This document shows, piece by piece, positions 9,308-24,000 of a DNA stretch of 24,000 nucleotides. Made by a program: the position numbers and the translations under genes. Position 1 is the stretch's first letter. Every line of letters begins with the position of its first letter. The stretch covers positions 38,460-62,459 of the forward strand of contig CAUTUQ010000008.1 in the NCBI GenBank assembly GCA_963542025.1, written 5' to 3'. The notes below the pieces were generated by a model. It was not told the origin of the DNA and ran no database searches. It saw nothing but the letters and a program-made list of their open reading frames with translations. The stretch comes from an uncultured Atopobium sp. Lineage in GTDB: Bacteria > Actinomycetota > Coriobacteriia > Coriobacteriales > Atopobiaceae.

Positions 9308-9395
9308 GAGCGCGTCCGCGCTGCGTAAGCACCACGTAAGTACACGTGCGAACGCCGCGTAAGCATCGCATTTCTTTTGGCCCCTACGTCGTTTT

Positions 9396-9799: not shown

Positions 9800-9801
9800 T
9801 T

Positions 9802-9845: not shown

Positions 9846-10074
9846 ATTTGACGTGGGGGCTTTTCTATCTTGCGGCAGCTTGACCGCGAGTTGACCGCTG
9901 GTTGGCCGCAGTCCGATCACAACCTGATCGCAGCCCGAAATCGTTCAAGAAAATTGTCTCAAAAAGTGGACAAAAGTCCTTATTTTTATTTTTGCTAGCA
10001 GGTACAATTACTCAAACTTAAGCCGAAACTGTCCTGTAAAGAGGACTTACGAAACAAGAACAGCGAGGTCTCGT

Positions 10075-10806
10075 GTGAACGTCCTAACCTACCTTGATAG
10101 TCTTGATTCTGACGTTCGCAAGAAGATCATCAAATGGGCTTCTCGCGTTCCTGCTAATCGTCTTTCTCACTGTAGGCAGATTCGTCTTAATTCCGGGCAG
10201 ACTCTTGTCCACATGCTGGACCGCGTTGATAACGTGTACATTCTGTGCCGCGGTACCGTGCGTACTACGTCGCATAATTCCGCAGGCAGCACGTATGTTA
10301 TTGACGAGTATCGTGCGCCCGTTGCTTTTGGTGAGATGGAAGTTATCAGCGAGAGCCCGTTTTACCTGGGATCGCTCACCGCAACTTCCGGCTGCGAGTT
10401 TATTTCGGTTCCACGCGAGGACTACCTGCAGTGGATTCGTTCGGACCCTGAGGCACTTCTCACCCGCTCACGCTGGATTATCAAAAATCTGACGCGTCAG
10501 TCCGGCTACGAGCGCAGCCTGCTGACCTGGAGCGGAACCAAGCGCCTGATGTACATGCTTAGCGAGCTGACGCGCGATCAGATTCATCGCGGCGTTGTTG
10601 AGTGGCCGTTTACGGTACGTCTGACCAGGCAAGAGCTGGCAGACAAGATTGGTACCAGCACAAAGACTGTTGCCCGCGGCATCGACGAGCTTAAGGAGAG
10701 GGGCATGGTTTCTGTTCAGCACGGCAAGATTGTCATTACCGAGAGGCAGTTCCAGCGTCTCGACGACGCAATGAAACACGAGGGAGAATCCCACCTTCTG
10801 GACTAA
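10075..10806 (+). CDS. Crp/Fnr-family transcriptional regulator (cNMP-binding-like domain plus C-terminal HTH), without an FNR-type Cys cluster
   Basis: 243 aa. The beta-roll region contains FGEMEVI, and the C-terminal HTH is LTRQELADKIGTSTKTVARGIDELKERGMV. GTG start with GAGG 6 nt upstream. Confidence 0.85.
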   Translation: MNVLTYLDSLDSDVRKKIIKWASRVPANRLSHCRQIRLNSGQTLVHMLDRVDNVYILCRGTVRTTSHNSAGSTYVIDEYRAPVAFGEMEVISESPFYLGSLTATSGCEFISVPREDYLQWIRSDPEALLTRSRWIIKNLTRQSGYERSLLTWSGTKRLMYMLSELTRDQIHRGVVEWPFTVRLTRQELADKIGTSTKTVARGIDELKERGMVSVQHGKIVITERQFQRLDDAMKHEGESHLLD

Positions 10807-10971
10807 TCTCTGTACCTGGCACAACACTTGGGCAAGACCGTTCTTCTCGCCCCGAGCGTTGCGCATCTCACCTGGCATGACGCGCTTCTCGCGCCACGCC
10901 GCATCTGGAACGACCGACGTACCCGTCGTAATCACAACCCTGTTTTTGCAGGATAAACGTAAGGAGCACTA

Positions 10972-12474
10972 ATGAGCGAGTTCATGGACATCATCACTTC
11001 CGACAACCTCTCGTACAAGCAGAAGGTTCTGCACCTGGCTCAGGCTGCCGAGAACTCCGAGCATCCTATCAAGACGACCGCTGAGTTTGACCGTCTTTTT
11101 GCAGCTCACGCACTTGACGACATGTGTGAGGGCAACGCTCCTTACCGTCCTCGCTACATCTGCCCTGACTACCAGGTATTTGCTCAGAACGGCTCCGAGT
11201 TTTTGCGCTTTGACAAGCCAGAGACCCTTGATGACCTGCTCTGGGGCCTCGCCGCTCTTTACGACAACGTTCCTTCAGTCACCAGCCGCCCTGTCTACGT
11301 TGGCCAGCTGGACAAGATTATTGATCCGTTCCTAGAGGGCATGACTGACGCAGAGATTAAACCTCGTCTGCGCCGCTTCCTGAACCACATCGACCGCACC
11401 GTTGCGAGCGGTTACTGCCACGCAAACATTGGTCCAGAGGACACTCGCGCAGGTAGACTGCTGCTTGAGGTTGACCGCGAGCTCATGAACGCTGTTCCAA
11501 ACTTCACCCTCAAGTACGACCCAGAGGTCACTTCCGACGAGTTCATGCGCCTGGCAGTCAAGACCACCATGGTCTGCTCCAACCCTGCTTTTGCTAACCA
11601 CCGCATCCACAAAGAGACCTACCCTGGCGAGTACACCGTCGTAAGCTGCTACAACGTCCTTCCTATGGGCGGCGGCGCTTACACTTTGAGCCGCGTGCTT
11701 CTCCCTGGCCTGGCAAAGCTTGCAACCAACGTTGACGACTTCATGAACAACCTGCTGCCAACCGCAACCGGCGAGGTTCTGAACTTCATGAATGAGCGCG
11801 TCCGCTTTATTGTTGAGGATTCCAACTTCTTTGAGACCAGCTTCCTGGCTAAAGAAGGCCTCATTTCTCGCGAGCGTTTCTGCGGCATGTTTGGTGTTGC
11901 TGGCATGAGCGAGTGCGTCGCTGAGCTGCTGCACCTTGATAGCAGCCGCACCTACGGCAAGGATGACGAGGCTAACGAGCTAGCCGACCAGATCATGGTC
12001 AAGATTGCCGACCAGGTCAACAGCTTTGACGCCGTCTACTCCGAGGTCTTTGGCGGCCGCTTCACCCTACACGCACAGGCTGGTTTCTCCGACCAGCAGG
12101 GCGTTACCCCTGGTGTCCGCATCAAGGTTGGCGACGAACCCGCAAACCTCTACGACCACATTCGCCACAGCGCACGCATGCACCGCTTCTTCAACAGCGG
12201 CGTCTCCGACATCTTCCCAGCTGAGCCAACTGCTGAGCGCAACCCAGACGCTGTCGTTGACGTGGTCAAGGCCGCATTCTCCATCGACGACAAGTACCTC
12301 TCGTTCTATAGCTCCGAGGGTGACCTGGTCCGCATCACAGGCTTCTTGGCTAAGCGTTCCGAGATGAAGAAGTTCCAGTCCGGAGACGTTGTTCTTCAGG
12401 ACACCGCTCACGACGGCCTGGGCAACTTCACCGCTAACCACCTTGCCGACCGCAAGGTTCGCATGAGCGACTAG
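10972..12474 (+). CDS. yjjI: YjjI-family (DUF3029) short glycyl radical enzyme, substrate unknown
   Basis: 500 aa. The C-terminal DLVRITGFLAKR matches the glycyl-radical fingerprint R-[VI]-x-G-[FWY] (Gly457, nt 12340-12342). Length and overall sequence recall E. coli YjjI (about 500 aa) rather than the ~800 aa PFL-type enzymes. A YjjW-type activase gene follows 19 nt downstream. RBS AAGGAG lies 5 nt upstream. Confidence 0.8.
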   Translation: MSEFMDIITSDNLSYKQKVLHLAQAAENSEHPIKTTAEFDRLFAAHALDDMCEGNAPYRPRYICPDYQVFAQNGSEFLRFDKPETLDDLLWGLAALYDNVPSVTSRPVYVGQLDKIIDPFLEGMTDAEIKPRLRRFLNHIDRTVASGYCHANIGPEDTRAGRLLLEVDRELMNAVPNFTLKYDPEVTSDEFMRLAVKTTMVCSNPAFANHRIHKETYPGEYTVVSCYNVLPMGGGAYTLSRVLLPGLAKLATNVDDFMNNLLPTATGEVLNFMNERVRFIVEDSNFFETSFLAKEGLISRERFCGMFGVAGMSECVAELLHLDSSRTYGKDDEANELADQIMVKIADQVNSFDAVYSEVFGGRFTLHAQAGFSDQQGVTPGVRIKVGDEPANLYDHIRHSARMHRFFNSGVSDIFPAEPTAERNPDAVVDVVKAAFSIDDKYLSFYSSEGDLVRITGFLAKRSEMKKFQSGDVVLQDTAHDGLGNFTANHLADRKVRMSD

Positions 12475-12493
12475 CGAGAAGAGCTGCGCAATC

Positions 12494-13453
12494 GTGACCT
12501 TCACTGCAACAGAAACAACTTTGGGAGCAGCACGCGCCGAAGCGTCGCGTCCCACAACCGCGAGCACCGCGGCAACGAGCGACGCGGCAACCAATTCAGG
12601 AGCAGCACATCCTACCGGGTGTGTTGCTCCTGTCAATAAGATCATTCCCTTCTCGCTGGTAGATGGCCCAGGAAGCCGAACCGCCGTCTTCCTCCAAGGC
12701 TGCAACATTCGCTGTGCCTACTGCCACAACCCCGAGACCCAGGTAGAGTGCATCTCCTGCCAGGCGTGCGTCAAACCATGCCCAGCTCACGCCCTGTCTG
12801 TGGCTGACGGAAAAGTTGTGTGGGACAACTCCATCTGCATCAACTGCGACAACTGCATCAAGGTGTGCCAGCACAAGTCCACGCCAAAGATTGAGCTGCT
12901 CAGCGCGCGCGAGGTGGCCGACCGCTGCATTTCCAACATGCCGTTCATCCGCGGAATCACCACGTCAGGCGGCGAATGCATGCTCCGTCCCGACTTCCTC
13001 TACGAACTCTTCAGCTACTGCAACGCGGCCGGCCTGAGCTGCCTCATCGACTCAAACGGCACCATCGACTTCACCGAGTACCGCGACCTGCTGGCCCTCT
13101 CGAGCGGCGTCATGCTTGACGTTAAAGCCTGGGACGATCAGTGGTTTGAGCATCTGACCGGCGAAAATGGCGTCACGGTTCGCAAAAATCTTGCATTTTT
13201 GGCCGAGCAAAACAAGCTGGAAGAGGTTCGCGTCATCGTGACCGAAGGCTGGAACGACGCCGAAGCCGCAGTTGACGGCATTGCCGCAACCCTTGGCGAG
13301 AAGGTCGGTCACACGCGCATTCGCCTCATGAAGTTCAGGCGTTTTGGCGTGCGCGGACCGATGGAGAACTCTCCTTCTCCAAGCGACGAGCGCATGCAAG
13401 CGATTGAGTCGCAGGCTCGCAACCTGGGCTTTGGCGAGGTTGTCGTCAGCTAG
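12494..13453 (+). CDS. yjjW: Glycyl-radical enzyme activating protein (radical SAM, YjjW type) with a ferredoxin-like insert
   Basis: GCNIRCAYCHNPE is the CX3CX2C radical SAM motif (C70/C74/C77). Two CX2CX2CX3C motifs follow (CISCQACVKPC and CINCDNCIKVC), then GGECMLRPDF. Start is uncertain: the only in-frame options upstream of the conserved core are GTG 12494 and TTG 12521, leaving a ~35-45 aa Ala/Thr-rich extension. Confidence 0.88.
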   Translation: MTFTATETTLGAARAEASRPTTASTAATSDAATNSGAAHPTGCVAPVNKIIPFSLVDGPGSRTAVFLQGCNIRCAYCHNPETQVECISCQACVKPCPAHALSVADGKVVWDNSICINCDNCIKVCQHKSTPKIELLSAREVADRCISNMPFIRGITTSGGECMLRPDFLYELFSYCNAAGLSCLIDSNGTIDFTEYRDLLALSSGVMLDVKAWDDQWFEHLTGENGVTVRKNLAFLAEQNKLEEVRVIVTEGWNDAEAAVDGIAATLGEKVGHTRIRLMKFRRFGVRGPMENSPSPSDERMQAIESQARNLGFGEVVVS

Positions 13454-13484
13454 TCGCCGCGGCGTCGCGGACCACGACTCACAC

Positions 13485-13498
13485 GGGTTTCTCGCCAG
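13485..13498 (-). repeat. Copy 2 of the dispersed motif CTGGCGAGAAACCC (inverted on the plus strand)
   Basis: The plus strand reads gggtttctcgccag. It lies 32 nt after the yjjW stop and shares the extended context gggcac..aaaagc..tggcgagaaaccc with the 3.6 kb copy. Confidence 0.7.
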
Positions 13499-13526
13499 CT
13501 TTTGTGCCCTTTTCACTGCAACAAAT

Positions 13527-13566
13527 AACGACCTCGCAGCACATGCCACGAGGTCGTTTTCATTTT
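13527..13566 (+). terminator. Rho-independent terminator candidate for yjjI-yjjW
   Basis: aacgacctcg-(12 nt loop)-cgaggtcgtt is followed by ttcatttta. The stem is a perfect 10 bp. Confidence 0.6.
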
Positions 13567-13591
13567 ATCTATCAATGAGGTGCCAGCTGGC

Positions 13592-13680
13592 AAACTCCAG
13601 TTCAGTGGACTACCGGCCTGAAAACCCCAGTTCAGTGGACTATCGGTCCAGTAAACTCCAGTTCAGCGAGTTACTCGGTG
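13592..13680. repeat. Tandem repeat of about 30 bp x3 (aaaMYccagttcagtggactaYcgg...) in the yjjW/deoC convergent spacer
   Basis: The units are 13592-13620, 13621-13652 and 13653-13680. The third, more degenerate unit runs into the deoC stop codon and its last codons. Confidence 0.65.
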
Positions 13681-14312
13681 ACGATAGCGATTCCGCTGGA
13701 GCAGCCCAGGCGGTCGGCGCCCGCTGCGACCATTGCCTCAGCATCAGCCTTATTGTGGATGCCGCCAGCAGCCTTGACCTTGCAAGTGTCGCCGACAGTC
13801 TGCTTCATCAGAGCGACATCGTGAACAGTTGCGCCGCCGGTGCTAAAGCCAGTACTTGTCTTGACAAACGCAGCTCCGGCAGCCATGCAATCCTTACAGG
13901 CACGAACGATCTGCTCGTCATCAAGCAGGCAGCACTCCAGGATTACCTTAACGGGCACGGTACCAGCAGCCTCAACAACAGCCTTGATATCAGCGATTAC
14001 GTAGTCGTCGTCGCCCGCGACCAGGTGGCCGCCGTTGATGACCATGTCAATCTCGGTGGTGCCGTCGGCAACACTCTGCTTGGCCTCGGCGACCTTAGCT
14101 GCAGTTGAAGCAGCGCCCAGAGGGAAACCGATGCAGGAAGTAATGCCAACTCCGGAGCCCTCGAGCTCGGCGTGGGCCAGGGAAACCCAGCAAGAATTGA
14201 TAGCGACGGTTGCAAACTTATACTGCTTTGCCTCGGCGCAAAGTTTCTTGATGTCCTCAGCGGTTGCGTTTTGCTTCAAGTTTGTATGGTCGATAAGGCC
14301 GTTGACTTCCAC
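13671..14312 (-). CDS. deoC: Deoxyribose-phosphate aldolase
   Basis: IDHTNLK, FVKTSTGF (Schiff-base Lys region) and VKAAGGI are DeoC hallmarks. I trimmed the track ORF (14414) to GTG at 14312, which has GAAGGAG 6 nt upstream. This gives 213 aa, the usual DeoC length. Confidence 0.9.
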   Translation of the reverse strand: MEVNGLIDHTNLKQNATAEDIKKLCAEAKQYKFATVAINSCWVSLAHAELEGSGVGITSCIGFPLGAASTAAKVAEAKQSVADGTTEIDMVINGGHLVAGDDDYVIADIKAVVEAAGTVPVKVILECCLLDDEQIVRACKDCMAAGAAFVKTSTGFSTGGATVHDVALMKQTVGDTCKVKAAGGIHNKADAEAMVAAGADRLGCSSGIAIVTE

Positions 14313-14467
14313 GATTTTCTCCTTCTGACTGTACGTTATGAGTGGTTTGTGCCCTCTATTGTACGGCAAGCACACCGCAAAAGATGCGGCTACCTGGTTT
14401 TTGCTATCCAGCATAACTGTCTGGCTGAAATACTTAGATTAGCTAACTGGTATAACTACCTGCCGAG

Positions 14468-15496
14468 TTACCTGGCTTTGAATAGTCGCATCCACAGTGC
14501 TTGTTGACGATCTTCAAGATCAGAAATAGTTGTGTCACGTGCGACTATTCCTGTAGACTCTCGAATCTGACGAACCAAACCTTGAACACTTGAGAAACTT
14601 TTTAACATCTCTCCAGAAACCGAAAAATGTGGACATTGCACGCCCGTTACCAGCTCGTTTTCTCGATCCAAATCTCGCATGACTCTTTGGCCGCCAGCGT
14701 GCGTTACCGCTGGATCAGAATCTAGCAGCACCGTCGCTTGCTTCTTTCTTTTGTCCTTGAGCTGAATGGTTAAGTCAGGAATTCGAGTGATTTTCTCGCC
14801 ATATCGATTTTCCAGCTCGATTGGCCTATTGAGTTCGACAGTTCCTAGGTTAAATCCACCAAGGTTATACGGGAGGCACAATAACAGCGCAAGCGAAGCT
14901 TCTCGGGGCGACCGAGCTTTCTCTACGATGTGCTGAAGTGCTCGTTTAGCTGGGATGATGCCGCGCTTTCTTCCTTGCGTGGAAAGAAACTTTGCAATCG
15001 CAGCGCGATTTGTTAGAGGGCCATTTTGGCGTTGCGAAACTCCACCATGGCCATCCTGATTCAAAAAATAATCGGAACACAGGGCACTACCTGCAAGGAT
15101 TGTTCCAATAAAATCAAGCTTTGAAGCAATCTGCAAATAAGTGAATTCCGGAGAGGTAATAAATCCCTTTAAGTCAGCACCTATAGGTAGAAGCGATGAT
15201 GGCGGAACCTTTGAATTACAGATATGAAGCGCAACATTTTCTCTTGTAGACGCGGAATTCAAATCACGGATTAGCAGGTCAACCTTGCTATTAGGCTCCT
15301 GGTGAAGACGCACACCTTGTATCTCTGGTAGGTGTCCATAGTAGACGGCAAGCTCTCGTTCCATGGCTGCACCAGGTGTAGACTCTGGAACAAGTGGCGC
15401 TCTGACCATACCATTTGCTGCCGCCGACGAATCAAATGGCCTAGAGGAACTCATCAATAAATTAAACGCTGAAAAGTACGAAAGACAGTAATCCAT
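14468..15496 (-). CDS. Hypothetical protein; the C-terminal half resembles DUF559/Vsr-like (PD-(D/E)xK fold) endonuclease-domain proteins
   Basis: 342 aa, with visibly lower GC than its neighbours. Pattern SPREASLALLL..P....G......(RIPDL)....(VLLDSD)...H......D.DRENEL...G parallels the DUF559 layout S-x-x-E...R-x-D...E-x-D-G...H...D-x-x-R...L. The acidic core is altered, so it may be inactive. RBS GAAGGAG lies 4 nt upstream of ATG 15496. Confidence 0.5.
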   Translation of the reverse strand: MDYCLSYFSAFNLLMSSSRPFDSSAAANGMVRAPLVPESTPGAAMERELAVYYGHLPEIQGVRLHQEPNSKVDLLIRDLNSASTRENVALHICNSKVPPSSLLPIGADLKGFITSPEFTYLQIASKLDFIGTILAGSALCSDYFLNQDGHGGVSQRQNGPLTNRAAIAKFLSTQGRKRGIIPAKRALQHIVEKARSPREASLALLLCLPYNLGGFNLGTVELNRPIELENRYGEKITRIPDLTIQLKDKRKKQATVLLDSDPAVTHAGGQRVMRDLDRENELVTGVQCPHFSVSGEMLKSFSSVQGLVRQIRESTGIVARDTTISDLEDRQQALWMRLFKAR

Positions 15497-15722
15497 AGCA
15501 CTCCTTCGCGAAAAAGTATGAATTCCATACCCGGAAATAGCTCAAGTAATCTGACCGATTTGAAATCACATAGGAAATCTGTGTAAGATTTGTTGTTCTG
15601 GCGTCCTCCCGGAGGCTTGCCGTGCAATTTCACTGTCCTATTTCAAAATTCTGAATATTTACACTATTAAATTCATTTCTATGAATACATAATTTTCGAG
15701 CTCAAAATTATGTGCCGAAAAA

Positions 15723-15870
15723 GGTAAAAAACCCGTTTAGTTGGAAATGAAAATTGAAATTTAGCTGTTTTATCTCCAACTAAGACGATTTTTTACCGCG
15801 CCAAAAACTTTTATCTGGGCAAACGTTATATGCAGAAAAATGAAATTTCCAACTAAACGCATTTTTTACC
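15723..15870. repeat. MITE-like 148 bp unit bounded by 26 bp inverted repeats, with a third internal copy
   Basis: Copy A ggtaaaaaacccgtttagttggaaat (15723-15748) matches the reverse complement of copy C atttccaactaaacgcattttttacc (15845-15870) at 24/26 positions. Direct copy B is tctccaactaagacgattttttacc (15773-15797). It lies in an AT-rich ORF-poor stretch. Confidence 0.45.
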
Positions 15871-16001
15871 ACTTTGGCGTAACTCGAAGCGCTTTTGGCA
15901 CCGAAGCGTCCATCCTCGTCTGCGAACACGCCTATCCTCGCACGTCTGCGCCCGCGCTCGCACCCGCCCACACCTGTGCGCCCATCCGCGCACCCGCGCA
16001 C

Positions 16002-16036
16002 AAAAAAGCCTGGTAGCGGAACGCTACCAGGCTTTT
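16002..16036 (-). terminator. Rho-independent (bidirectional-looking) terminator downstream of the alcohol dehydrogenase gene
   Basis: aaaaaa-gcctggtagcg-gaa-cgctaccaggc-tttt gives a perfect 11-12 bp GC-rich stem. It is flanked by an A-run and a T-run and lies 28 nt after the stop at 16064. Confidence 0.8.
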
Positions 16037-16063
16037 AGCGAAGCTAAGTCTCTAAGCTAGATC

Positions 16064-17278
16064 TTAGAACTCGACAGGAAGGTCGAAGTAGACGCACTTA
16101 AGCAGCTGCTCCATCTCCTCCTGGGTAGGCTTGCGTGGGTTGGAGAGGGTGCAAGCGTCCTCGATAGCAAGGCGAGCAACCTCTGGAGCCTTCTCGAAGA
16201 ACTCCTTCTCGTCGATGATGGAGGTCTCGGACTTGGTTCCGCCCTCGCCGTAGTTCTTGATGCCCTGTGGGATGTCAAGAGCGTCGTTGATGTCGCGAAT
16301 CTTCTGGACGAGAGCCTCTACCAGCTCGTCCTCGGTGTTGCCCTCGAGGTGCAGGATCTCCTTAGCAATGAATGCATAGCGAGTCTTTGCGCGCTCGTCA
16401 CGAGCGTTGAACTGAATGACCTTGCCCAGGTACATAGCGTTTGCGCAACCGTGAATGATGTGACCACCAGAGAATGCTGCGCCGGTCTTGTGAGCCATGG
16501 AGTGAACAATGCCCAGAAGGCCAGAGGAGAATGCGATACCAGCGATGCACTGTGCGTCATGCATGTGCTGACGAGCCTCTTTGTCACCCTTGTAGGACTT
16601 TGGCAGCCACTCAACAATCTCGCGGATTGCATGGAGAGCGTCGCCGTCGGTGTACATAGAAGCAACGGTAGAAACATATGCCTCGATAGCATGGGTCAGT
16701 GCGTCCATACCAGTGTGAGCAACAAGCTTAACAGGCATACCATACGTAAGCTCAGGGTCAACAATAGCGACGTCAGGGGTAATCTGGAAGTCAGCGATTG
16801 GGTACTTAACACCCTTCTGGTAATCAGTAATGATGGAGAATGCGGTTACCTCAGTTGCGGTACCGGAAGTAGAAGAAATTGCGCAGAAGTGAGCCTTGGT
16901 GCGGAGCTCAGGAAGACCAAAGACCTTGCACATGTCCTCAAAAGTGGTCTCTGGATACTCGTACTTAATCCACATAGCCTTAGCTGCGTCGATTGGAGAG
17001 CCGCCGCCGATAGCAATAATCCAGTCTGGCTGGAACTCGGACATCTTTGCAGCGCCGCTCATAACGGTCTCGACGGAAGGATCGGACTCGACGCCCTCAA
17101 TGTGAGCAACCTCAAAACCTGCGGACTTGAGATCGTTCTCGATGTCATCAAGGAAGCCGCCGCGGCGCATGGAGCTGCCGCCGGAAACGATAACTGCCCT
17201 CTTACCCTTGAGGTTCTTAACCTCGTGACGAGCGCCCTCGCCAAAATACAGATCGCGTGGATTTGTAAAACGTCCCAT
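16064..17278 (-). CDS. Iron-containing (group III) alcohol dehydrogenase
   Basis: 404 aa. AIGGGSPIDAAKAMW is the Fe-ADH signature, and His-rich metal ligand regions are present (HTGMDALTHAIEAY, HSMAHKTG, GHIIHG). RBS AAGGAG lies 6 nt upstream. Confidence 0.92.
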   Translation of the reverse strand: MGRFTNPRDLYFGEGARHEVKNLKGKRAVIVSGGSSMRRGGFLDDIENDLKSAGFEVAHIEGVESDPSVETVMSGAAKMSEFQPDWIIAIGGGSPIDAAKAMWIKYEYPETTFEDMCKVFGLPELRTKAHFCAISSTSGTATEVTAFSIITDYQKGVKYPIADFQITPDVAIVDPELTYGMPVKLVAHTGMDALTHAIEAYVSTVASMYTDGDALHAIREIVEWLPKSYKGDKEARQHMHDAQCIAGIAFSSGLLGIVHSMAHKTGAAFSGGHIIHGCANAMYLGKVIQFNARDERAKTRYAFIAKEILHLEGNTEDELVEALVQKIRDINDALDIPQGIKNYGEGGTKSETSIIDEKEFFEKAPEVARLAIEDACTLSNPRKPTQEEMEQLLKCVYFDLPVEF

Positions 17279-17436
17279 AAACCTCTCCTTAACTATCTGC
17301 CACTTCCCTAAGCGGCTAGCGAAGCCATTCTTCGCAGTTACTTCTTCTCAACATTTCTATTCTATCTCTTTTGAGACAACTGTACATAAATGAATGTGCC
17401 ATTTTATGCAATATCGTTCAAATTTTATGCGGTCAC

Positions 17437-17500
17437 CTGACAAGAAACTGACAGTCATCTGACAAGAAACTGACGCTCATCTGGCGAGAAACCCGTCCAC
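17437..17500. repeat. 22 bp tandem repeat (2 exact-ish units plus 1 degenerate unit) upstream of adh; the third unit is copy 3 of the dispersed CTGGCGAGAAACCC motif
   Basis: ctgacaagaaactgacagtcat (17437-17458), ctgacaagaaactgacgctcat (17459-17480) and ctggcgagaaacccgtccac (17481-17500). Confidence 0.7.
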
Positions 17501-17625
17501 TCCAAACATTTCTATATGCCGTTCACAATCTTGTTACGACGCTCGCGGAGTTGCCTCGCACACCTCAATAACCTGCGATATCATTTCTTAAGAAAGAAAG
17601 GAATCTCAAGAGAGAAAGGAATTTT

Positions 17626-18837
17626 GTGGCGTTTGACCCAGTAAAAGAAGACTACCAGCGGCTTATCCTCCGCTTTGCTCGCACGCAAGTTGGCGACGAG
17701 GACAGTATTGCCACGCTGATGAAGGACTTCAACTGGCGATTCTCCAACGACCGCAATTCCCTCCCCCAAACCGACGAAGACCGCGCATTCAATCTAGTTG
17801 CTCAGGCGGCCGAAATTGTTGATTATCGCCTGCCTTTTGTCGAAGAATCTCAGGCGCAGACCCTTATCGACCAGGGAAAACGCCTCCTCAACCAGGCAAT
17901 TCAGCTGGACCCCAACTGTTTTGACGCCCAGCGCATGCTCCACGCCTCAAATAGCAGGCTTTTTGACGTCTACTACCAGTTCCTTGTGGAGAAGCTCCCC
18001 CAGGTAGAAGCCGCATGCTATCAGAAGGCGCAAGAGTCCTCACAGGGGCTCCCCGCTGAGCAGGCAGAACTTGCCCAGAGGCTGGCCATCAACCCCTATA
18101 AGCGCTGGTTGGCAACGCTTTCTTCTCGCGCGCTTATCTGCGGCCGCAACAAAGACGCCATCGCATATGGCGAGAAACTCCTGGAGCTTGACGCTGCAGA
18201 TGCGGCCGATGCTCGTTTTACGCTTGCACTCGCATACGCAAAACTCGAGGACGAGGACGCTCTCGACAACCTCATGGACCAGTACCGCAAGCTTGATCCG
18301 CCTCGCGGGGCAGATGACCCGTGGATTTTGCTGGCCCGCCTGGCTATTCACTTCAAAAAGCGTGAGCTGGTTGAGGCAGAACACTATCTTGACCTGCTGA
18401 TTGAGCGCTATCCCGAGGCAACGCTTTGCTGTTTTGTGCAGAAGGATTTGCCCGAGGGAGAGTTCTCGCGCCTTAACGTGCTCCCCTATTCTGAGGACGA
18501 GCTCATCATTGCCATTGCAGAGGCAACGGTGCTGCTGCAAGAAGGAAATGACCTGATAGGACGCGGTGTTCTTGGTCGTTGGCTTGCAGATCAGGTTAGG
18601 GCGAGAGACCCAAAGACCGTTGAACTTGCAGAAAAAGAGCTGCAAATGCAGGCAAACGCCTTGTTCGCTTCTACAGATTCTTTCCCTGGTGGATCCGACT
18701 TCCCCGACGACCCGGTCGGCTCTGACCCCGCTGGCTCTGGCGGCCCCAGCTTCCCCGGAGGTCCCGCCGGCCCGCAACCACACGGACCGTATATCGACGG
18801 GCCAAATAATCCACACTCAGGTGGTGATGCAGAGTGA
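17626..18837 (+). CDS. Hypothetical alpha-helical (TPR-like) protein with a Pro/Gly-rich acidic C-terminal tail
   Basis: 403 aa. GTG start with GAAAGGA 5 nt upstream. Codon usage is coherent over 1.2 kb. The tail is SFPGGSDFPDDPVGSDPAGSGGPSFPGGPAGPQPHGPYIDGPNNPH. No enzyme motif was recognised. Confidence 0.7.
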   Translation: MAFDPVKEDYQRLILRFARTQVGDEDSIATLMKDFNWRFSNDRNSLPQTDEDRAFNLVAQAAEIVDYRLPFVEESQAQTLIDQGKRLLNQAIQLDPNCFDAQRMLHASNSRLFDVYYQFLVEKLPQVEAACYQKAQESSQGLPAEQAELAQRLAINPYKRWLATLSSRALICGRNKDAIAYGEKLLELDAADAADARFTLALAYAKLEDEDALDNLMDQYRKLDPPRGADDPWILLARLAIHFKKRELVEAEHYLDLLIERYPEATLCCFVQKDLPEGEFSRLNVLPYSEDELIIAIAEATVLLQEGNDLIGRGVLGRWLADQVRARDPKTVELAEKELQMQANALFASTDSFPGGSDFPDDPVGSDPAGSGGPSFPGGPAGPQPHGPYIDGPNNPHSGGDAE

Positions 18838-19862
18838 TTAAGCATTCCGCTAACGATATGGTCAGCGAGCAGGTAGACCGCCTAGTCACAAAGTGTGCCC
18901 AAGAAAAGAACATCGTCTCTGAAGCTGCTCTTTATGAGTTGAAACTTGCGGTAGAAGCTTCTCCTGAAGACTTTATTGCTGACGAAGAGGAAAAAGCTTT
19001 TGCTCAATACGTCAACGTCATTGGTAAGTATCAGGCTGGAATTACTAAAGAAATTGATTCTGATGCGGACTTCTTCTCAAGCCGTATGGATCTGCTTAAC
19101 TTCTTGCATAATCAGATGACAAATATTACTGAAAACCCAGCTCTTAACAGCACAAGTATCAATCTTGAAGCACAGAGAATCCTGGCGCAAATCTCCAACA
19201 ATCATCCTGCAGCCATCCTTAACGACCTGCTTGACCTGCAAAAAGAATTCGACCCTATCTTTAGGCCAAAACTAGAACAAGCAAAGCAAGAGCAAGGTGA
19301 TGCCTGGAGCTGCGCTGAGGCACGACCACTTTTGCGCCTCTACGCACAGATTGCCCAGGTAGCAACCGATTGCGCTTGCTTCAAGCTCTCCAAAAAAGCC
19401 TGCGAAGATCTCTTGTTCTTCTCGCCAACTGATTTGCTGGGTGCGCGTTTTACCTTGGCATATGTGCTTGCTCGCCTGGAAGACGAAGAAGGGCTCCATA
19501 AGCTGGACGAGAGCTGCGGATATCAGTCCAATGCTTGGATGCGTCTGGCGTTTACGCTGCTGTTCTTCAAGTTGAATCGCATGCCCGCGGCAAAGCGAGC
19601 GCTCAAAGGCTTTGTCAACCTAGGCGAGGGAGCGGCGTATGCGCTGCTCAGGCCATCTTTTGTTGATCTCTACATTCCGTGCAGAATCAACTTTACACCT
19701 GATACGTTTGCCGAGAACGTTATCGCAGTTCATGAGGCCGAAGCGATTATCGCCGACGTGCCGGAATTTATTTCGTGGGCAGAGTCGGTGCCTGGCGTGA
19801 CTCAGAGCGCTCGCGACTACGCATTTAAGACTGGGCTGGACTGGTGGGAAAACGAAGAATAG
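18834..19862 (+). CDS. Hypothetical alpha-helical protein, paralog of the upstream gene
   Basis: 342 aa. The GTG overlaps the upstream TGA (GTGA). It shares blocks with the upstream protein: ARFTLAYVLARLEDEEGLHKL vs ARFTLALAYAKLEDEDALDNL, AWMRLAFTLLFFK vs PWILLARLAIHFK, and a later A(V/I)xEAEA(I/T) block. It lacks the Pro/Gly tail. Confidence 0.7.
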   Translation: MIKHSANDMVSEQVDRLVTKCAQEKNIVSEAALYELKLAVEASPEDFIADEEEKAFAQYVNVIGKYQAGITKEIDSDADFFSSRMDLLNFLHNQMTNITENPALNSTSINLEAQRILAQISNNHPAAILNDLLDLQKEFDPIFRPKLEQAKQEQGDAWSCAEARPLLRLYAQIAQVATDCACFKLSKKACEDLLFFSPTDLLGARFTLAYVLARLEDEEGLHKLDESCGYQSNAWMRLAFTLLFFKLNRMPAAKRALKGFVNLGEGAAYALLRPSFVDLYIPCRINFTPDTFAENVIAVHEAEAIIADVPEFISWAESVPGVTQSARDYAFKTGLDWWENEE

Positions 19863-19930
19863 ATGTAAGCTCAAAATCAGCTCGTTTAGCACTAGAAATC
19901 TGCAGCAACTTTGCTATACTTTTTCTTCGC

Positions 19931-20005
19931 GTCCCCATCGTCTAACGGTTAGGACATCGCCCTTTCAAGGCGGCAATACGGGTTCGATTCCCGTTGGGGG
20001 CACCA
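19931..20005 (+). tRNA. tRNA-Glu (anticodon UUC), CCA encoded
   Basis: Hand-folded cloverleaf. Acceptor gtcccca/tgggggc; D arm gtct..ggac; anticodon stem tcgcc/ggcgg with loop cTTTCAa (anticodon TTC); T arm acggg-ttcgatt-cccgt; then A-CCA. Confidence 0.93.
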
Positions 20006-20009: not shown

Positions 20010-20405
20010 CTATTTGTCATTAAGCTTTTCTTTTATTAGTTTAACTAGTCTAGCAGGTGTTTTTATGCCAAGCTTCTTTAAAGCTTTTATTGCAGACATA
20101 CTTTCTTCAACAATATAAAATGTCATTGTAATTTGAACCATGGAAATAGGGCCGATTTTTGCGAGAAGGTCAAAAAGCGCCGAAAGTATAACGACTCCCA
20201 CAATAAGGAGTTTTTTCGCTATCACCGTTTCAATAAATTTCAAAGTTAATTTCTTACGATTTGTATAGCTATACATGGTGACTAGGCTATTTAGAGCTAA
20301 TACATAAATCAAACCGCATGTTAATAAAGCGTAGTTTGCAATAAAAATAGTCAATCCTTGGCTAAATTTATCCGCAATTAAAAATACAATGCATCTTCCA
20401 ATCAT
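20010..20405 (-). CDS. Holin-like small membrane protein (phage holin family 4 / TcdE-like)
   Basis: 131 aa with about 3 TM segments and a charged C-terminal tail (KLIKEKLNDK). The last TM region FYIVEESMSAIKALKKLGIKTPARL resembles the ..E..SI.EN...G..(I)P..L motif of this holin family. Strong RBS AAGGAGG lies 4 nt upstream. Confidence 0.6.
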   Translation of the reverse strand: MIGRCIVFLIADKFSQGLTIFIANYALLTCGLIYVLALNSLVTMYSYTNRKKLTLKFIETVIAKKLLIVGVVILSALFDLLAKIGPISMVQITMTFYIVEESMSAIKALKKLGIKTPARLVKLIKEKLNDK

Positions 20406-20522
20406 TGCACCTCCTTTCTATGTTAATTTACTCATTACTGTAACCTTTAAAATAAAGACAGAAATGTTTAGAGAATTAACCTTTGGCAGTGAATTTGATG
20501 AAGAAGACCCTGTATTTAGCTA

Positions 20523-20551
20523 TAGACTCTTTTGATTTATTTATATACAAT
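20523..20551 (+). promoter_or_regulatory. Putative sigma-70-type promoter for the 20607 membrane-protein gene
   Basis: TAGACT (20523-20528), a 17 nt spacer, then TACAAT (20546-20551), about 55 nt upstream of the ATG. This is pattern match only. Confidence 0.3.
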
Positions 20552-20606
20552 AGTTTGCAAAATTCTACTGAAATGTCTTTATCTGCCTACAGAATAGGAT
20601 ATCGCG

Positions 20607-21242
20607 ATGGACAGGTCAAAAGGGTTTTTTATCACGGTAATTTGCTTCGTATATTTTGTTATTTGCGTCCTGTCAGTGGTTTATTTCTTCTTCTCAAATT
20701 TCTCTTTCTTCTCACTTGATTATAATACTCCAGTGAGCTTTCTTGGCACTTTGTTAACAATACCGCAGGCATTATTTCTTATGTCTATTTTCATTCTAAT
20801 AACTTCACTAATACTGTTGTCTAAAATAAAATCTATGGTTACTTTTTTTAAAAAAGCAACTTATCTATTTGCTATTTATAATACCTCTGTTGCTTTTTGT
20901 GCAGCATTATTTTTATTCATTCCTTGCATTTTTTCCTGTCAAAATGATTATAAATCTGTAGTAAATACTGGAGAAATTTCATTATCCAGAGTTGTTTTAC
21001 TTGAGGAATTTGATGGAGGAAGAGAAACTTTACATTTTTATGTTTTACGTTTTCCATTCGGTTTGGGAGAAAGTATAGCAACTATTAAGTTATATCGCCA
21101 CTCAATACCAACTGAAGATATTGAGTGGCTACTAGTTCATGAGAATAACCAATATCACATTACAACTACAAACTCAGATGCCATTGAAACCCTAACGGAA
21201 TTTAATTCTTTCCCCATACATACAAATCTTATCCGTCTATGA
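20607..21242 (+). CDS. Hypothetical multi-pass membrane protein with a ~90 aa soluble C-terminal domain
   Basis: 211 aa. Four hydrophobic segments lie in the first ~115 aa (FFITVICFVYFVICVLSVVYFFF, ...LFLMSIFILITSLILL, ...YLFAIYNTSVAFCAALFLFIPCIF). A polar domain follows. The RBS is weak and the start is uncertain. The 3' end overlaps the convergent 790 aa gene by 14 nt. Confidence 0.55.
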   Translation: MDRSKGFFITVICFVYFVICVLSVVYFFFSNFSFFSLDYNTPVSFLGTLLTIPQALFLMSIFILITSLILLSKIKSMVTFFKKATYLFAIYNTSVAFCAALFLFIPCIFSCQNDYKSVVNTGEISLSRVVLLEEFDGGRETLHFYVLRFPFGLGESIATIKLYRHSIPTEDIEWLLVHENNQYHITTTNSDAIETLTEFNSFPIHTNLIRL

Positions 21243-23574
21243 AATCATGCGTTAATGCATGAAATAATATATCACTCAGATATTTAGATTCAGATTCATC
21301 AGGAAGTCGATTGGAAGCTGAGGCGCGTAAGAGTATCGCATCAAAAAATGGAATCTCATTTCTTGGTAGTCCATTAACCAAACTATCAAACACACTCTCA
21401 ACACACTTGCGTTCACCTTTAAATCGATTTAAGCAAAAAAGAGATCTGCGATTTAGCGGTGCTAATGAAAATATATATCGAAGAACCTCCGAAAGAAGAG
21501 CGTTTTTATCATGAAGCATCATTGCAGCTAGATAACCATCTACGTCACTCATTAAGTCTTTATAGTCAAACCCTGACTCTATAGATCTACTTCCAAGACA
21601 AACGGATAACCAATTTTGTAAATATTGTTTTTGAATTCCCTCTTTTTGACTATTTCCCCAAATCTGAAGTAAGTCTAAAATCCAACCACCTAAATCCGCA
21701 AACATAAAATAATCATAAGATACTGAATCGAAATGGCAGATATTTCCTAAAACTGTAGCAGCAAAATGCTCTAAATCATATGTAGTTTTAAACTGCCCGG
21801 GATCTGGAATGATCGATTTGCATATCCTATTCACCTCTTCTTTTAAGATTACTTCAGATGAATCATATGACTCTGGTGTATATACTTGCCACATCAAAGC
21901 AGTATTTTCTTTTGCCCAGTATTCTGGTTTTCTCAAATACTCAAGGATAAATTTAGACAGCTGCTGATTTTTAATTGGATCCTTTAACTTTTTTATAGCT
22001 ATCTTCTCAATTTGCGATATAGCATTAATAATATCGTCATGCTGGAACTTACTTTGTCCATTATGAACCACTAGCGAACAAGCTGGAAATTTTCCTGAAT
22101 AGGCAACTCTATCAAGATCCCACCTTCCTCTATACCCAGTAATTTCTGTGAATTGATCAAATACCCATTTGTCCGGAATTGAGAAACCTAGGTTTCCTGA
22201 ATATCCTGTACTCATATCAGATACAAATGCTGCTTCTGCAAGTCCATGATGGATAATCCTAGAACAAATATTTCTAGAAGCGTAAATTCCCACTAAATAT
22301 CCGTCTCGTATATTGTCCTTTAATGCTTTGAAATATGGAATGATATTACTGTCTATCTCAGGATCAGTTGCATCATAATCTACTGTGAAATATATTACTG
22401 TTTTTGGCACTCCTAAGCGTTTTGCATGCTTAACTGCTTCAAGTGCATGGCTTTTTCCTTCGCTGTAAGAAAAATGATTCAATTTAGTTGAATACATTTG
22501 AAAAATGGGAAAGTACTCTAAGCCATAGCTAACTATTCGGTCAAGCTCTCCAGTTCGAAGTGCTTTAAATAAATCATTCTCTGCCGTCATTTCTTGATCT
22601 GGCTCACAAAGATATCTTCCTACAATCCGATAGCCATCTTCCTTTAAACAAGAAGCCAACTCATCAGTAATTTCAAATCGCGTATCACATGCAACGCATT
22701 TTCTATCAGGATCTCCCTTTGAGGTAAGTAAGCTCATCCATGTTGTTTTATCAATAACAGAAGTAACTGGAAGGGCATAGCTCTCTTGGAATTTTCGTAC
22801 ATCTTCACTCAACTCAAACGACCAAGAACGTGTGATATTTCTTCTAATTCCATTACACACTAGAGCAGAACTAGCCAGCCAAACCCAATCTGAAGAGCCT
22901 GAATCAATTGTTTTTAATCTGGCACGTGTTCCATTTCCAAAATATCCTGTAGCCTCTTCTGGCGTAAATCCTTCTATTGCTTGCAAAACTTGAATCATAG
23001 CCTCATTCATTTCGCGACCATAAATACCATCAGTAGGAACAATTCCAGTATATTCACGATAACGACGATTAATTTCTTGCTGAATTTCACGTATTGACGT
23101 TTTTCCTCCATACATTGCAAGAAGTCTAAATTGCTTCATTGAAAGGAGCGCACCCATCATCTCAATATCCACCACAAAATTGTTTTGATGATTAATAAGA
23201 CCCATATCATTCTTTAACTTTAAAATTGACTCTATGGTCCCACCATCAATTACATTTGTAATTGATCCATAATGTGCCGCATATCCTTTACACCAAAGAG
23301 CTCCTTGTATAATTGCATAAATATTTGATGTTGGCTTTTTCCCCAAAGTTTGACGACTTATTCCGTTGGGAAACATCTCAGAAAACTTTGCTTTTGTGCC
23401 TTCTCCAAAATTATCAGCAGTAAACTGAATTCCAAGCTCAATTTGAAGTGCCCTAATCAAGCCAAAGATGGTGTTCCATCCAGTATGACCAGATTCCTCT
23501 ACCTGGTTAAATCGATTATCGTTAACGTAAGTTCTATTCAACCACTTTTGAGTTGCTAAAACCATTTCATCCAT
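21229..23574 (-). CDS. Large peptidoglycan-binding-repeat / DUF1906 (Rv2525c-like glycoside-hydrolase-like) protein with an unassigned ~270 aa C-terminal domain; YbfG/YkuG-like architecture
   Basis: The N-terminal ~300 aa hold four PG_binding-like helical repeats (e.g. ATQKWLNRTY...GWNTIFGLIRALQIELGI, and IREIQQEINRRY...GIYGREMNEAMIQVLQAIEG). The central region has GYRIVGRYL, FPIFQ, VIYFTVDYDA, LVGIYASRNICSRI and WDLDRV, matching DUF1906 landmarks. No signal peptide is present. The track ORF starts at 23601 but has no RBS there and sits inside a hairpin. ATG 23574 has GGAG 8 nt upstream, so I prefer it (781 aa). Confidence 0.8.
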   Translation of the reverse strand: MDEMVLATQKWLNRTYVNDNRFNQVEESGHTGWNTIFGLIRALQIELGIQFTADNFGEGTKAKFSEMFPNGISRQTLGKKPTSNIYAIIQGALWCKGYAAHYGSITNVIDGGTIESILKLKNDMGLINHQNNFVVDIEMMGALLSMKQFRLLAMYGGKTSIREIQQEINRRYREYTGIVPTDGIYGREMNEAMIQVLQAIEGFTPEEATGYFGNGTRARLKTIDSGSSDWVWLASSALVCNGIRRNITRSWSFELSEDVRKFQESYALPVTSVIDKTTWMSLLTSKGDPDRKCVACDTRFEITDELASCLKEDGYRIVGRYLCEPDQEMTAENDLFKALRTGELDRIVSYGLEYFPIFQMYSTKLNHFSYSEGKSHALEAVKHAKRLGVPKTVIYFTVDYDATDPEIDSNIIPYFKALKDNIRDGYLVGIYASRNICSRIIHHGLAEAAFVSDMSTGYSGNLGFSIPDKWVFDQFTEITGYRGRWDLDRVAYSGKFPACSLVVHNGQSKFQHDDIINAISQIEKIAIKKLKDPIKNQQLSKFILEYLRKPEYWAKENTALMWQVYTPESYDSSEVILKEEVNRICKSIIPDPGQFKTTYDLEHFAATVLGNICHFDSVSYDYFMFADLGGWILDLLQIWGNSQKEGIQKQYLQNWLSVCLGSRSIESGFDYKDLMSDVDGYLAAMMLHDKNALLSEVLRYIFSLAPLNRRSLFCLNRFKGERKCVESVFDSLVNGLPRNEIPFFDAILLRASASNRLPDESESKYLSDILFHALTHDFIDG

Positions 23575-23590
23575 TGAAGATACTCCAATC

Positions 23591-23616
23591 GACCTCCCCA
23601 TATTAATGGGGAGGTC
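23591..23616 (-). other. Perfect 9 bp stem-loop between the partial upstream gene and the 790 aa gene
   Basis: gacctcccc-atattaat-ggggaggtc. The first in-frame ATG (23601-23599) lies at the stem/loop junction. No T-run follows on the coding strand, so it may be a processing or translation-control element, or a weak terminator. Confidence 0.45.
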
Positions 23617-23628: not shown

Positions 23629-24000
23629 TTAATAAACCGTAATGGATTTCTTTTGAACATTTCCAGGCTCGCCACCTGAATATGTAACACCAACTCTTCC
23701 CGTTGGACCTAGAGAGATTGCATCTGTACAATAAACTGATCCAGGAGACCAATTGCCTCCTCCAGACAAATGATTTGCTCCATACGCAGATCGCTTAGGC
23801 GTCCATACTGAAGCAGTGCTTCCAGGCTCCATGTTACTACCCCGACGAACAGTTACTCTAACCCAACACCACCTGTTACCTCCGTAAATGCCCAATCTGA
23901 GCTCTACTCGAAAATAAGAAGTACTAAATTCAGACAGTGTCTCCGTACTAATAAAATTCACGCTAAATGGATTAATGTTGCTACTCACACTTTCAATCAT
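23629..24000 (-). CDS. Hypothetical Gly/Ser/Thr/Trp-rich (probably all-beta) protein, likely truncated at its 5' end by the window edge
   Basis: The frame is open from the window edge to the stop at 23629. The sequence ...YGGNRWCWVRVTVRRGSNMEPGSTASVWTPKRSAYGANHLSGGGNWSPGSVYCTDAISLGPTGRVGVTYSGGEPGN... has no hydrophobic helices and no family I recognise. The ATG at 24000-23998 may be coincidental. Confidence 0.5.
   Translation of the reverse strand: MIESVSSNINPFSVNFISTETLSEFSTSYFRVELRLGIYGGNRWCWVRVTVRRGSNMEPGSTASVWTPKRSAYGANHLSGGGNWSPGSVYCTDAISLGPTGRVGVTYSGGEPGNVQKKSITVY

Follow-up and report, generated by a model that had tools for sequence, protein, structure and literature searches.

To our knowledge, Bac41, which is encoded on plasmids such as pYI14 and pMG2200 in the order bacL1-bacL2-holin-orf-bacA-bacI, is the only two-component bacteriolysin known in enterococci, and BacA is its unexplained half. 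The other described systems to which the locus treated here has to be compared are the clostridial holin-release loci (TcdR, TcdE, and TcdL in the PaLoc of Clostridioides difficile; UviA, UviB, and BCN5 in Clostridium perfringens) and type 10 secretion generally. In Bac41, BacL1 and BacA are secreted effectors that jointly lyse Enterococcus faecalis; BacL2 acts as their positive regulator, and the producer is shielded by BacI (bioRxiv 10.1101/2020.11.20.391417; PMC13532309; PMC7476776). BacL1 consists of a catalytic part of ~329 amino acids (aa) followed by a triple SH3 repeat (PMC9951850). The plasmid pMG2200 has been reported as the carrier of a Bac41-type bacteriocin, and a passage of the same paper citing Kurushima 2016 describes Bac41 subtypes as differing downstream of the effector gene, a difference tied to immunity specificity (PMC8532689). 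Here, a locus from an uncultured oral Atopobium sp. (contig CAUTUQ010000008.1) is described, which was found in a stretch of 24,000 nucleotides (nt), hereafter called the window. It encodes a large BacA-family protein, a convergently encoded membrane protein, and a holin, and it looks like a known kind of system, i.e., a Bac41-like one of inferred function, serving as a weapon in competition and not as a virus's own lysis genes. On balance, we lean toward viewing it as a Bac41-like, cell wall–targeting effector/immunity module with holin release, residing on a ~9-kb phage-derived island by a tRNA-Glu gene.

A BacA-family protein in Atopobium

The largest gene of the locus encodes 790 aa when read from its first ATG (Table 1). 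Alignments with homologs begin at M10, which is probably the true start and yields a protein of 781 aa. In BLASTP, it was 39% identical over residues 10-504 (E 2e-102) to a 726-aa protein encoded on the plasmids pSVR2332 and pMG2200, and no alignment extended past residue 504. The location of its gene and its domains identify the 726-aa protein as BacA, whose size and homology to YbfG/YkuG were checked against the plasmid annotation. The locus on both plasmids encodes, in this order, a 595-aa lysin, BacL2, a holin, a 175-aa secreted protein, the 726-aa protein (annotated as "ybfG"/glycoside-hydrolase-domain protein), a 180-aa protein with multiple transmembrane (TM) segments, and YcxB. The lysin contains Phage_lysozyme and Amidase_5 domains and three SH3_5 domains, in keeping with the architecture reported for BacL1. 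BacL2 matched the NF041508 equivalog with 264.8 bits and is annotated as bacL2 on pMG2200; the holin matched TIGR01593 with 82.8 bits. Because of the six-gene order, the BacL2 equivalog match, and the identical pMG2200 locus with its annotated bacL2, the plasmid locus was assigned to the Bac41 type. The Bac41 holin gene lies between bacL2 and bacA (4949-5428 in plasmid contig L090, 3461-3928 in L095). Bac41 itself looks, from its gene content, like a holin-exported, phage-derived system, with BacL1 built like a leaderless phage endolysin.

Like BacA, the Atopobium protein combines peptidoglycan-binding repeats with an Rv2525c/DUF1906 domain. When the whole protein was scanned against Pfam, PG_binding_1 was found at residues 255-290 (38.2 bits). 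Piecewise scanning with hidden Markov models detected two repeats (residues ~206-230 and 254-290; repeat 3 with 26.6 bits and repeat 4 with 21.8 bits when scanned alone). Another one is supported solely by the aligned position of BacA's Pfam match, and the first repeat was not detected by this method. The DUF1906 domain resembles glycoside hydrolases of the GH25 type (PDB 1sfs, E 9e-07), and the acidic residues D306, E310, D408, D410, D482, and E486 were invariant in 18 homologs. No hydrophobic segment is present at the N-terminus (maximal Kyte-Doolittle mean over 19 residues of 1.13); for this protein and for the 123-aa protein encoded upstream, the designation "leaderless" rests on hydropathy. 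Among the phage protein families (PHROGs), phrog_15213 ("unknown function") covers the protein from end to end (E 4e-278), and the GH25-like domain also matched the endolysin family phrog_13480 (E 7e-18). In total, 1843 homologs, ~780-830 aa long, were scored from Actinomycetaceae, Bifidobacteriaceae, Gardnerella, Coriobacteriia, Lachnospiraceae, Peptoniphilaceae, and Eubacterium. Conservation within the family is strong over the first ~505 residues; the last ~285 are far more variable and absent from some members.

A first-pass annotation of the window, which had been made from the sequence with its open reading frames (ORFs), agrees with these results in several respects. The three ORFs it listed, their coordinates, the 14-nt overlap (21229-21242) between the 3′ ends of the large gene and the membrane protein gene beside it, and the spacing of about 800 bp between the large gene and the holin gene (824 bp) were all correct, as were the DUF1906 call and the view that the large protein has neither a signal peptide nor a TM segment. 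Peptidoglycan-binding repeats are indeed present, but their number, given as four, was too high.

Table 1. Features of the locus, with window coordinates unless stated otherwise, and dN/dS (ratio of nonsynonymous to synonymous substitution rates) among island copies.
Feature	Position	Strand	dN/dS	Basis or remarks
tRNA-Glu(UUC)	19931..20005	+		ARAGORN; Rfam tRNA 61.6 bits
TcdE-type holin, 131 aa	20010..20405	-	0.07-0.28	PF05105 Phage_holin_4_1, E 8e-10, 39.2 bits vs cutoff 22.2; phrog_199 holin
38-nt block, copy 1	20445..20482	-		40 nt upstream of holin ATG
TM4A, multi-TM protein, 211 aa	20607..21242	+	0.50-0.84	ORF call, hydropathy; convergent with large gene; candidate immunity protein
BacA-family protein, 790 aa from first ATG	21229..23601	-	0.14-0.35	ORF call; homology
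C-terminal all-alpha domain, residues 506-790, PF27189 "YkzU"	21232..22086	-	0.35	Precomputed Pfam annotation, AlphaFold2 model
Rv2525c-like/DUF1906 GH25-like domain, residues 318-486	22144..22650	-	0.11	PF08924 Rv2525c_GlyHyd-like, E 3e-43
Peptidoglycan-binding-like repeat region, residues ~10-300	22702..23574	-	0.15	PG_binding_1, family conservation, dN/dS
123-aa beta-sandwich protein	23629..24000	-		Complete ORF; the window ends with its ATG codon
38-nt block, copy 2	L004 9436-9473, beyond window end			Upstream of 123-aa gene
TM4B, 211 aa	Beyond window end		0.45
Sigma-like regulator, 191 aa	Just beyond window end		0.10-0.20

The island at tRNA-Glu

A genome scan identified the host as an uncultured Atopobium sp. 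(Actinomycetota, Coriobacteriia), not a member of the Firmicutes as had been assumed at first pass. Positions 1-19900 of the window are ordinary chromosome with a GC content of ~50%. At position 20006, directly after the 3′ end of tRNA-Glu, GC content drops to 31-39% and remains there until the window ends. This low-GC part holds four genes, encoding the 131-aa holin, a 211-aa membrane protein (TM4A), the 790-aa protein, and the 123-aa protein. The portion cut off by the end of the window was read from the contigs L004 and L001; L004 carries a copy of the island with 99% identity, and six further contigs carry copies with 95-96% identity. The whole island comprises ~9 kb with 30-39% GC (L004 ~4670-13600) and is flanked by host genes with 50-57% GC. 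Its order is ABC-3C genes, a 191-aa sigma-70/YlxM-like regulator, a second membrane protein on the opposite strand (TM4B), the 123-aa gene, the large gene, TM4A on the opposite strand, the holin gene, and tRNA-Glu, and its content is limited to these genes. Neither an integrase nor phage structural or virion genes were found in the full island on L004, and att-like direct repeats of the tRNA end were sought at the far island border and not found. A megablast search of phage records with the island returned nothing, and tblastn returned two records only, one of them an unannotated 10-kb contig.

The other half of the island is an ABC-3C defense system (L004 4674-7715; also L012 6497-9562), consisting of a DUF2326 ABC ATPase, an MC6/MC7 middle component, and a CTD11 effector-like protein. 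It also adjoins a degraded copy of the module in A. minutum and thus accompanies it in two Atopobium lineages. PADLOC gave no defense-system match for any protein of the hydrolase module; the sole match was the neighboring ABC-3C-type protein. Three module-bearing contigs were binned into metagenome-assembled genomes (MAGs) of other organisms, i.e., Candidatus Saccharibacteria (L008, 95% identical to the Atopobium island), Oceanospirillaceae (L027), and Prevotella (L032), for which mis-binning is the likely cause.

A convergent membrane protein accompanies the family

TM4A has hydrophobic stretches at residues 3-37, 43-81, and 85-113, corresponding to three or four TM segments, followed by a soluble C-terminal part of ~100 aa. 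The four TM segments predicted at first pass are thus within the possible range, although three would also fit. A lysine-rich loop at residues 73-84 suggests a topology with the N-terminus inside and the C-terminus outside. No family match was obtained for TM4A in Pfam, PHROGs, NCBIfam, or PADLOC. TM4B is a distant paralog of TM4A with 24% identity. The unit formed by the multi-TM gene and its upstream region is duplicated (L004 8671-9514 and 12360-13196, the second copy corresponding to window 20406-21242). Each duplicate diverges from a unit on the plus strand of L004, one from the small/large operon and the other from the holin gene; what has survived of the duplication is a 38-nt block (see below) and the faint protein similarity.

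Across the family, the gene following the large gene lies almost always on the opposite strand, ends no more than 200 bp from the stop codon of the large gene (often overlapping it), and encodes 130-270 aa with several TM segments. Among the non-redundant loci with enough flanking sequence, 44 of 64 (69%) encode a convergent protein with at least two TM segments, compared with 21 of 338 (6.2%) for the other long ORFs of the same loci (Fisher p 3e-27, a value that overstates independence because the loci are phylogenetically related). These partners are very diverse, falling into 27 BLAST clusters, and a search for homology among those of different lineages with hhalign joined only clusters c2 and c7.

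A variable C-terminal domain and selection on the island

The first-pass annotation had recognized nothing in the last ~270 residues of the large protein. With its ~285 residues now assigned by precomputed annotations to PF27189 ("YkzU"), a family of unknown function, the region has ceased to be without a family. An AlphaFold2 model of residues 506-790 (mean predicted local distance difference test score, pLDDT, 87.3) is all-alpha with 15 helices. A fold search with this model gave no significant match in PDB or BFVD, and the profile of the domain matched neither PDB sequences nor a local copy of Pfam that lacked PF27189. Ranked first among the PDB entries was TelC (5ukh), a lipid II phosphatase toxin, which was not accepted as a match (E 0.55; template modeling score 0.26). 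Fold and profile searches also indicate that the domain is not a known wall-binding module. A word-indexed protein search with the C-terminal domain or the small protein was uninformative, and a literature search on "YkzU" retrieved nothing relevant.

Homologs that are ~60% identical in the N-terminal part share only ~30% identity in the C-terminal domain, which makes it a candidate for a variable specificity or effector domain. Polymorphic toxin/immunity pairs combine a conserved N-terminal trafficking part with a variable C-terminal domain of a recognized toxin fold and have the immunity gene directly downstream. Here, the variable C-terminal domains still make up one family and match no toxin fold, and the adjacent partner is variable but convergent, not co-directional.

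All genes are intact in at least seven Atopobium copies of the island. Together with the low dN/dS of most of them (Table 1), this indicates that the module is kept by selection. The small gene showed hardly any variation among the copies, and TM4A had the highest ratio in the island. Thus, change is fastest in the C-terminal domain and in the neighboring TM4A, a pattern that would be expected of an effector–immunity interface.

Holin, small protein, regulator, and a shared 38-nt element

The holin call made at first pass was confirmed by a score well above the Pfam cutoff (Table 1). Within the family, a holin of this type was found in a minority of lineages, i.e., in the Atopobium island, A. 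minutum, an Actinomyces MAG, Timonella, Peptoniphilus, two Clostridia MAGs, and the Bac41 plasmids.

The 123-aa gene precedes the large gene with a gap of 28 bp, its ATG is preceded by AAGGAG (read from L001), and the two genes are probably co-transcribed. The 123-aa protein has no hydrophobic N-terminus. In the AlphaFold2 model (pLDDT 87.1), it adopts an Ig-like beta sandwich, for which only generic fold neighbors were found. The family is tiny, with 19 representatives in 1.8 billion proteins, and most members are leaderless and ~120 aa long. A Tat-like signal is present in one relative, however, and an N-terminal signal together with an extra domain in another, which speaks for an extracellular role of the family. 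The 123-aa protein may be a co-effector that takes the place of BacL1, a subunit for targeting, or cargo.

The 191-aa regulator matched UPF0122 (28.8 bits, cutoff 22.7) and, below threshold, sigma70-ECF. It neither matched NF041508 nor showed pairwise similarity to BacL2, so it may be, at most, a functional analog of it. The order sigma-like, small, and large gene recurs in the contigs L054 and L091. One metagenomic contig encodes a bona fide sigma-70-family protein (TIGR02937, 53.8 vs 42.9 bits) together with a small and a large protein.

A block of 38 nt with the sequence AGGTTAATTCyCT-N5-TTTCTGTCyTTAkTTTArAG occurs upstream of both the holin gene and the 123-aa gene. It has exactly two matches in L004, with none expected from 100 shuffles. 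In all copies of the island, it is invariant at both sites, and the flanks of the two sites are unrelated. The block is probably a shared promoter or operator, which would place the holin gene and the small/large operon under common regulation. Scans for sigma-70 promoters and terminators gave results at chance level, and no convincing shared upstream motif was found in the Timonella cassette described below.

Family loci on prophages, plasmids, and in compact cassettes

In Arcanobacterium, Schaalia, and Anaerosacchariphilus, the family member lies inside a prophage, between replication or late-regulator genes and the gene for the small terminase. The Schaalia prophage (L050) has its own adjacent pair of a Phage_holin_4_1 holin and an Amidase_2/CW_7 endolysin, 6 kb from the large gene; thus, the family member is not the endolysin there. 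In two Actinomycetaceae prophages (L050 13529-20003 and L084 13592-18313), genes for an S-adenosylmethionine synthetase, a ParB-N6/N4 methylase, and a Dcm methylase are found between the small and large terminase genes, and in L050 the holin–endolysin pair also falls into this interval.

Plasmid searches yielded 567 records, 384 of them enterococcal. Beside Bac41, a second enterococcal class was observed on E. faecalis p1207_3 (L089 6001-8352) and several hundred other enterococcal plasmids. It is characterized by a 783-aa protein, annotated as a glycoside hydrolase domain protein, which is 35% identical through residue 742 of the window protein and therefore includes the YkzU-type C-terminus. 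Secreted proteins are encoded before it and a co-directional 131-aa protein with a single TM segment after it.

Compact cassettes also occur elsewhere. In Timonella sp. A28 (class Actinomycetes), genes for a sigma-like protein (187 aa), a small homolog (133 aa), the large protein, a convergent 4-TM protein (4-nt overlap), a holin, and an Amidase_2-like protein follow each other and are flanked by housekeeping genes. The A. minutum copy is degraded and frameshifted, with the large gene split into parts encoding 521 and 209 aa and the amidase gene split as well. An Amidase_2-like gene follows the holin gene in Timonella and A. minutum; the window island has none. In Atopobiaceae bacterium 24-176 (L086/L087), two paralogous small genes are located upstream, the convergent 4-TM partner has 250 aa, and two 72-aa genes downstream replace the TcdE-type holin. 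Most likely, the cassettes are remnants of a prophage late region in which a BacA-type module lay near the lysis genes, as in Schaalia, and the Atopobium cassette has additionally lost the amidase.

Proposed mechanism and alternative explanations

If the locus is a Bac41-like effector/immunity module, the 191-aa sigma-70-like regulator would activate two promoters sharing the 38-nt element, which is itself observed, one for the 123-aa and 781/790-aa proteins and the other for the TcdE-type holin. The holin lesion would let both leaderless products pass the membrane, whether or not a subpopulation lyses. Outside, by analogy to Bac41, the N-terminal repeats of the large protein would bind the peptidoglycan of neighboring cells lacking the island, and the wall would be attacked through the GH25-like domain and/or the variable C-terminal domain. 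TM4A and TM4B, which are read in the opposite direction, would protect the producer as BacI does, as suggested by their position, the conserved arrangement, and their fast evolution. A toxin/immunity module and export through the holin had already been put forward at first pass, rightly so as candidates; the former is now favored by the homology to BacA and the conserved multi-TM partner, whose part in immunity is presumed. That earlier reading as a whole was borne out in part only; it had missed the Bac41 homolog, the phage ancestry, and the upstream partners (the 123-aa protein, TM4B, and the sigma-like protein), which lie at or beyond the edge of the window.

Several observations weigh against this interpretation. 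In Bac41, BacA alone is non-lytic and needs the endopeptidase BacL1, and the ~9-kb island, as read from L001 and L004, encodes no lysin of the BacL1 type (Phage_lysozyme plus Amidase_5 plus SH3_5). The C-terminus of the large protein is YkzU (PF27189), whereas that of BacA is Ybfg_C (PF21015) followed by a hydrophobic tail, so that the functions of the two proteins may differ. TM4A and TM4B have no sequence similarity to the convergent partners of other lineages, and hhalign found none to BacI (probability 0.5%). Moreover, the membrane gene downstream on the enterococcal plasmids is co-directional and TM4A is convergent. Relaxed constraint instead of diversification could account for the high dN/dS of TM4A, and the relatedness of the loci tempers the partner count. 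Most homologous loci have no holin, and the Atopobium holin scored below the cutoff of the NCBIfam model TIGR01593 "toxin secretion/phage lysis holin" (31.9 vs 40.2 bits). Finally, an enzymatic activity has so far never been found for BacA (bioRxiv 10.1101/2020.11.20.391417; PMC13532309; PMC7476776).

Alternatively, the locus could be an apparatus like type 10 secretion, in which the holin opens the membrane, the large hydrolase-like protein opens the wall, the 123-aa protein is the cargo, and the membrane proteins are antiholins or regulators. This would fit the membership of the holin in the toxin-secretion/phage-lysis family, a leaderless small protein some of whose relatives carry Tat- or Sec-type signals, the recurrent pairing of small and large genes (28 bp apart in the island), and the promoter-like element that couples the holin to their operon. 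We nevertheless consider it unlikely: the large gene and its convergent TM partner mostly occur without the small protein and without this holin, the homolog BacA has been reported as a secreted effector (bioRxiv 10.1101/2020.11.20.391417), and a variable C-terminus facing a fast-evolving partner suits an effector–immunity interface better than a housekeeping part of a secretion device. Rather improbable is also a decaying or retained lysis remnant of a prophage, in which the large protein is a (former) endolysin, the holin its partner, and the antisense gene an unrelated moron, with no current function. The matches to phrog_15213 and the endolysin phrog_13480, the homologs inside prophages, the low GC content and the tRNA-adjacent site, the holin–Amidase_2 pair retained beside the module in Timonella and A. 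minutum, and the frameshifted state of the A. minutum copy would all be accounted for in this way. A remnant without function is at odds, however, with intact genes under purifying selection on at least seven Atopobium contigs and with a convergent TM partner far above background. An endolysin is at odds with the separate holin and Amidase_2/CW_7 endolysin of the Schaalia prophage, with a holin gene 824 bp away and an antisense gene in between, and with a C-terminus that is no known wall-binding module. The first-pass annotation had likewise rejected a canonical lysis cassette, which the lack of integrase and structural genes in the island and the separate endolysin of the Schaalia phage bear out; flanks of an ordinary prophage, which it had named as a finding that would overturn its reading, were not encountered.

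The module might also serve the maintenance of mobile elements by addiction or exclusion: a constitutive membrane protein would protect carriers, the large protein released from lysed carriers would kill element-free cells, and the benefit would be stability of the element. The family does occur on prophages, on plasmids (567 records), and on islands, an ABC-3C system neighbors it in two Atopobium lineages, and Bac41 may outperform toxin–antitoxin systems in plasmid maintenance (PMC8532689). This explanation differs from the Bac41-like effector/immunity module in the selective benefit only, the mechanism being the same; the absence of an integrase and of att repeats, i.e., of any sign of current island mobility, speaks against it, and we regard it as quite improbable.

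With more doubt than conviction, a wider proposal is put forward here. BacA/YkzU-type proteins whose genes have, at the 3′ end, a gene for a hypervariable multi-TM partner may represent a widespread, apparently undescribed class of leaderless, wall-directed effector/immunity modules. In Actinomycetota and Bacillota, this class would be carried by prophages, plasmids, and islands, and Bac41 would be a special case of it. The compact ones with a sigma-like regulator and a TcdE-type holin would then be self-contained, type 10-like weapons of Gram-positive bacteria, and the all-alpha C-terminus would be the determinant of specificity or killing that is neutralized by the extracytoplasmic domain of the partner.

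Significance

The results place BacA in a very large family that prophages, plasmids, and islands have spread among human-associated members of the Actinomycetota and Bacillota. The fast-evolving membrane partner that nearly always goes with it offers a comparative handle on the function of BacA-type proteins and on immunity. The compact Atopobium and Timonella cassettes are small enough to be reconstituted and are suited to testing export of folded leaderless proteins by TcdE-type holins in non-clostridial Gram-positive bacteria. Should the modules serve as weapons between strains of oral and vaginal communities (Atopobium, Gardnerella, Mobiluncus, Actinomyces, and Bifidobacterium), they would have a bearing on colonization resistance and may be a source of narrow-spectrum lysins.

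Other genes of the window

Directly upstream of tRNA-Glu, two adjacent ORFs of 403 and 342 aa lie on the plus strand (17626-19862); their GC content is host-like and their family matches are limited to weak TPR. The region 10972-13453 encodes a YjjI-like glycyl radical enzyme (PF11230, E 8.5e-213) and, behind it, its radical-SAM/4Fe-4S activase. At 7189-9307, the gene for a PfkB-family kinase with an N-terminal helix-turn-helix lies beside that for an Indigoidine_A-like protein (pseudouridine-5'-phosphate glycosidase type), and the two constitute a pseudouridine kinase/glycosidase pair. Further upstream, on the opposite strand, are genes for a Bmp-type nucleoside ABC transporter, a PNP_UDP_1-family phosphorylase (purine-nucleoside-phosphorylase family), and a metalloenzyme-superfamily protein, which together with the kinase and glycosidase genes make up a nucleoside-salvage neighborhood.

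Comparison with known systems

The canonical holin–endolysin cassette of phages of Gram-positive bacteria shares with the island the holin family, an endolysin PHROG on the GH25-like domain, and prophage origin. It differs in that the large gene of the island is not adjacent to the holin gene, with the antisense membrane gene between them, in that virion genes are absent, and in the order of domains, which runs from wall-binding repeats over a catalytic-like domain to an orphan domain. The central Rv2525c_GlyHyd-like domain is shared with YbfG and YkuG of Bacillus subtilis and with Rv2525c of Mycobacterium tuberculosis, and the BacA of the plasmids is annotated as "ybfG". Rv2525c is a Tat-exported, single-domain protein. 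In B. amyloliquefaciens, both the pellicle and the cell-free fraction contained YbfG (PMC12020853). These proteins are not known to occur in an immunity or holin context.

The clostridial holin-release loci also unite an alternative sigma-type regulator, a holin of the TcdE family, and exported proteins without leaders in one locus, with a peptidoglycan hydrolase-like protein associated. Their cargo is unrelated, however, and the hydrolase-like protein of the island is large, with its own peptidoglycan-binding repeats and a variable C-terminus, and is accompanied by dedicated membrane partner genes. Of the hallmarks of type 10 secretion, the island has a holin encoded with genes for presumably exported proteins (passing Pfam, below TIGR01593) and putative cargo that is leaderless by hydropathy. 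A candidate for the hydrolase partner is the GH25-like domain with its invariant acidic residues, but the homolog BacA has yielded no activity so far (bioRxiv 10.1101/2020.11.20.391417).

Compared with Bac41, the island differs, beyond the missing lysin and the unrelated C-terminus, in a regulator that is sigma-70-like and not BacL2, in a convergent and duplicated membrane partner whose sequence is unrelated to that of BacI, in the additional 123-aa beta-sandwich protein, and in its Coriobacteriia host and chromosomal location. In common with Bac41, it has a large protein combining peptidoglycan-binding repeats and an Rv2525c/DUF1906 domain, a holin of the Phage_holin_4_1/TIGR01593 type, a gene resembling a positive regulator, a multi-TM gene beside the 3′ end of the large gene, leaderless effectors, and the character of a phage-like module on mobile DNA.

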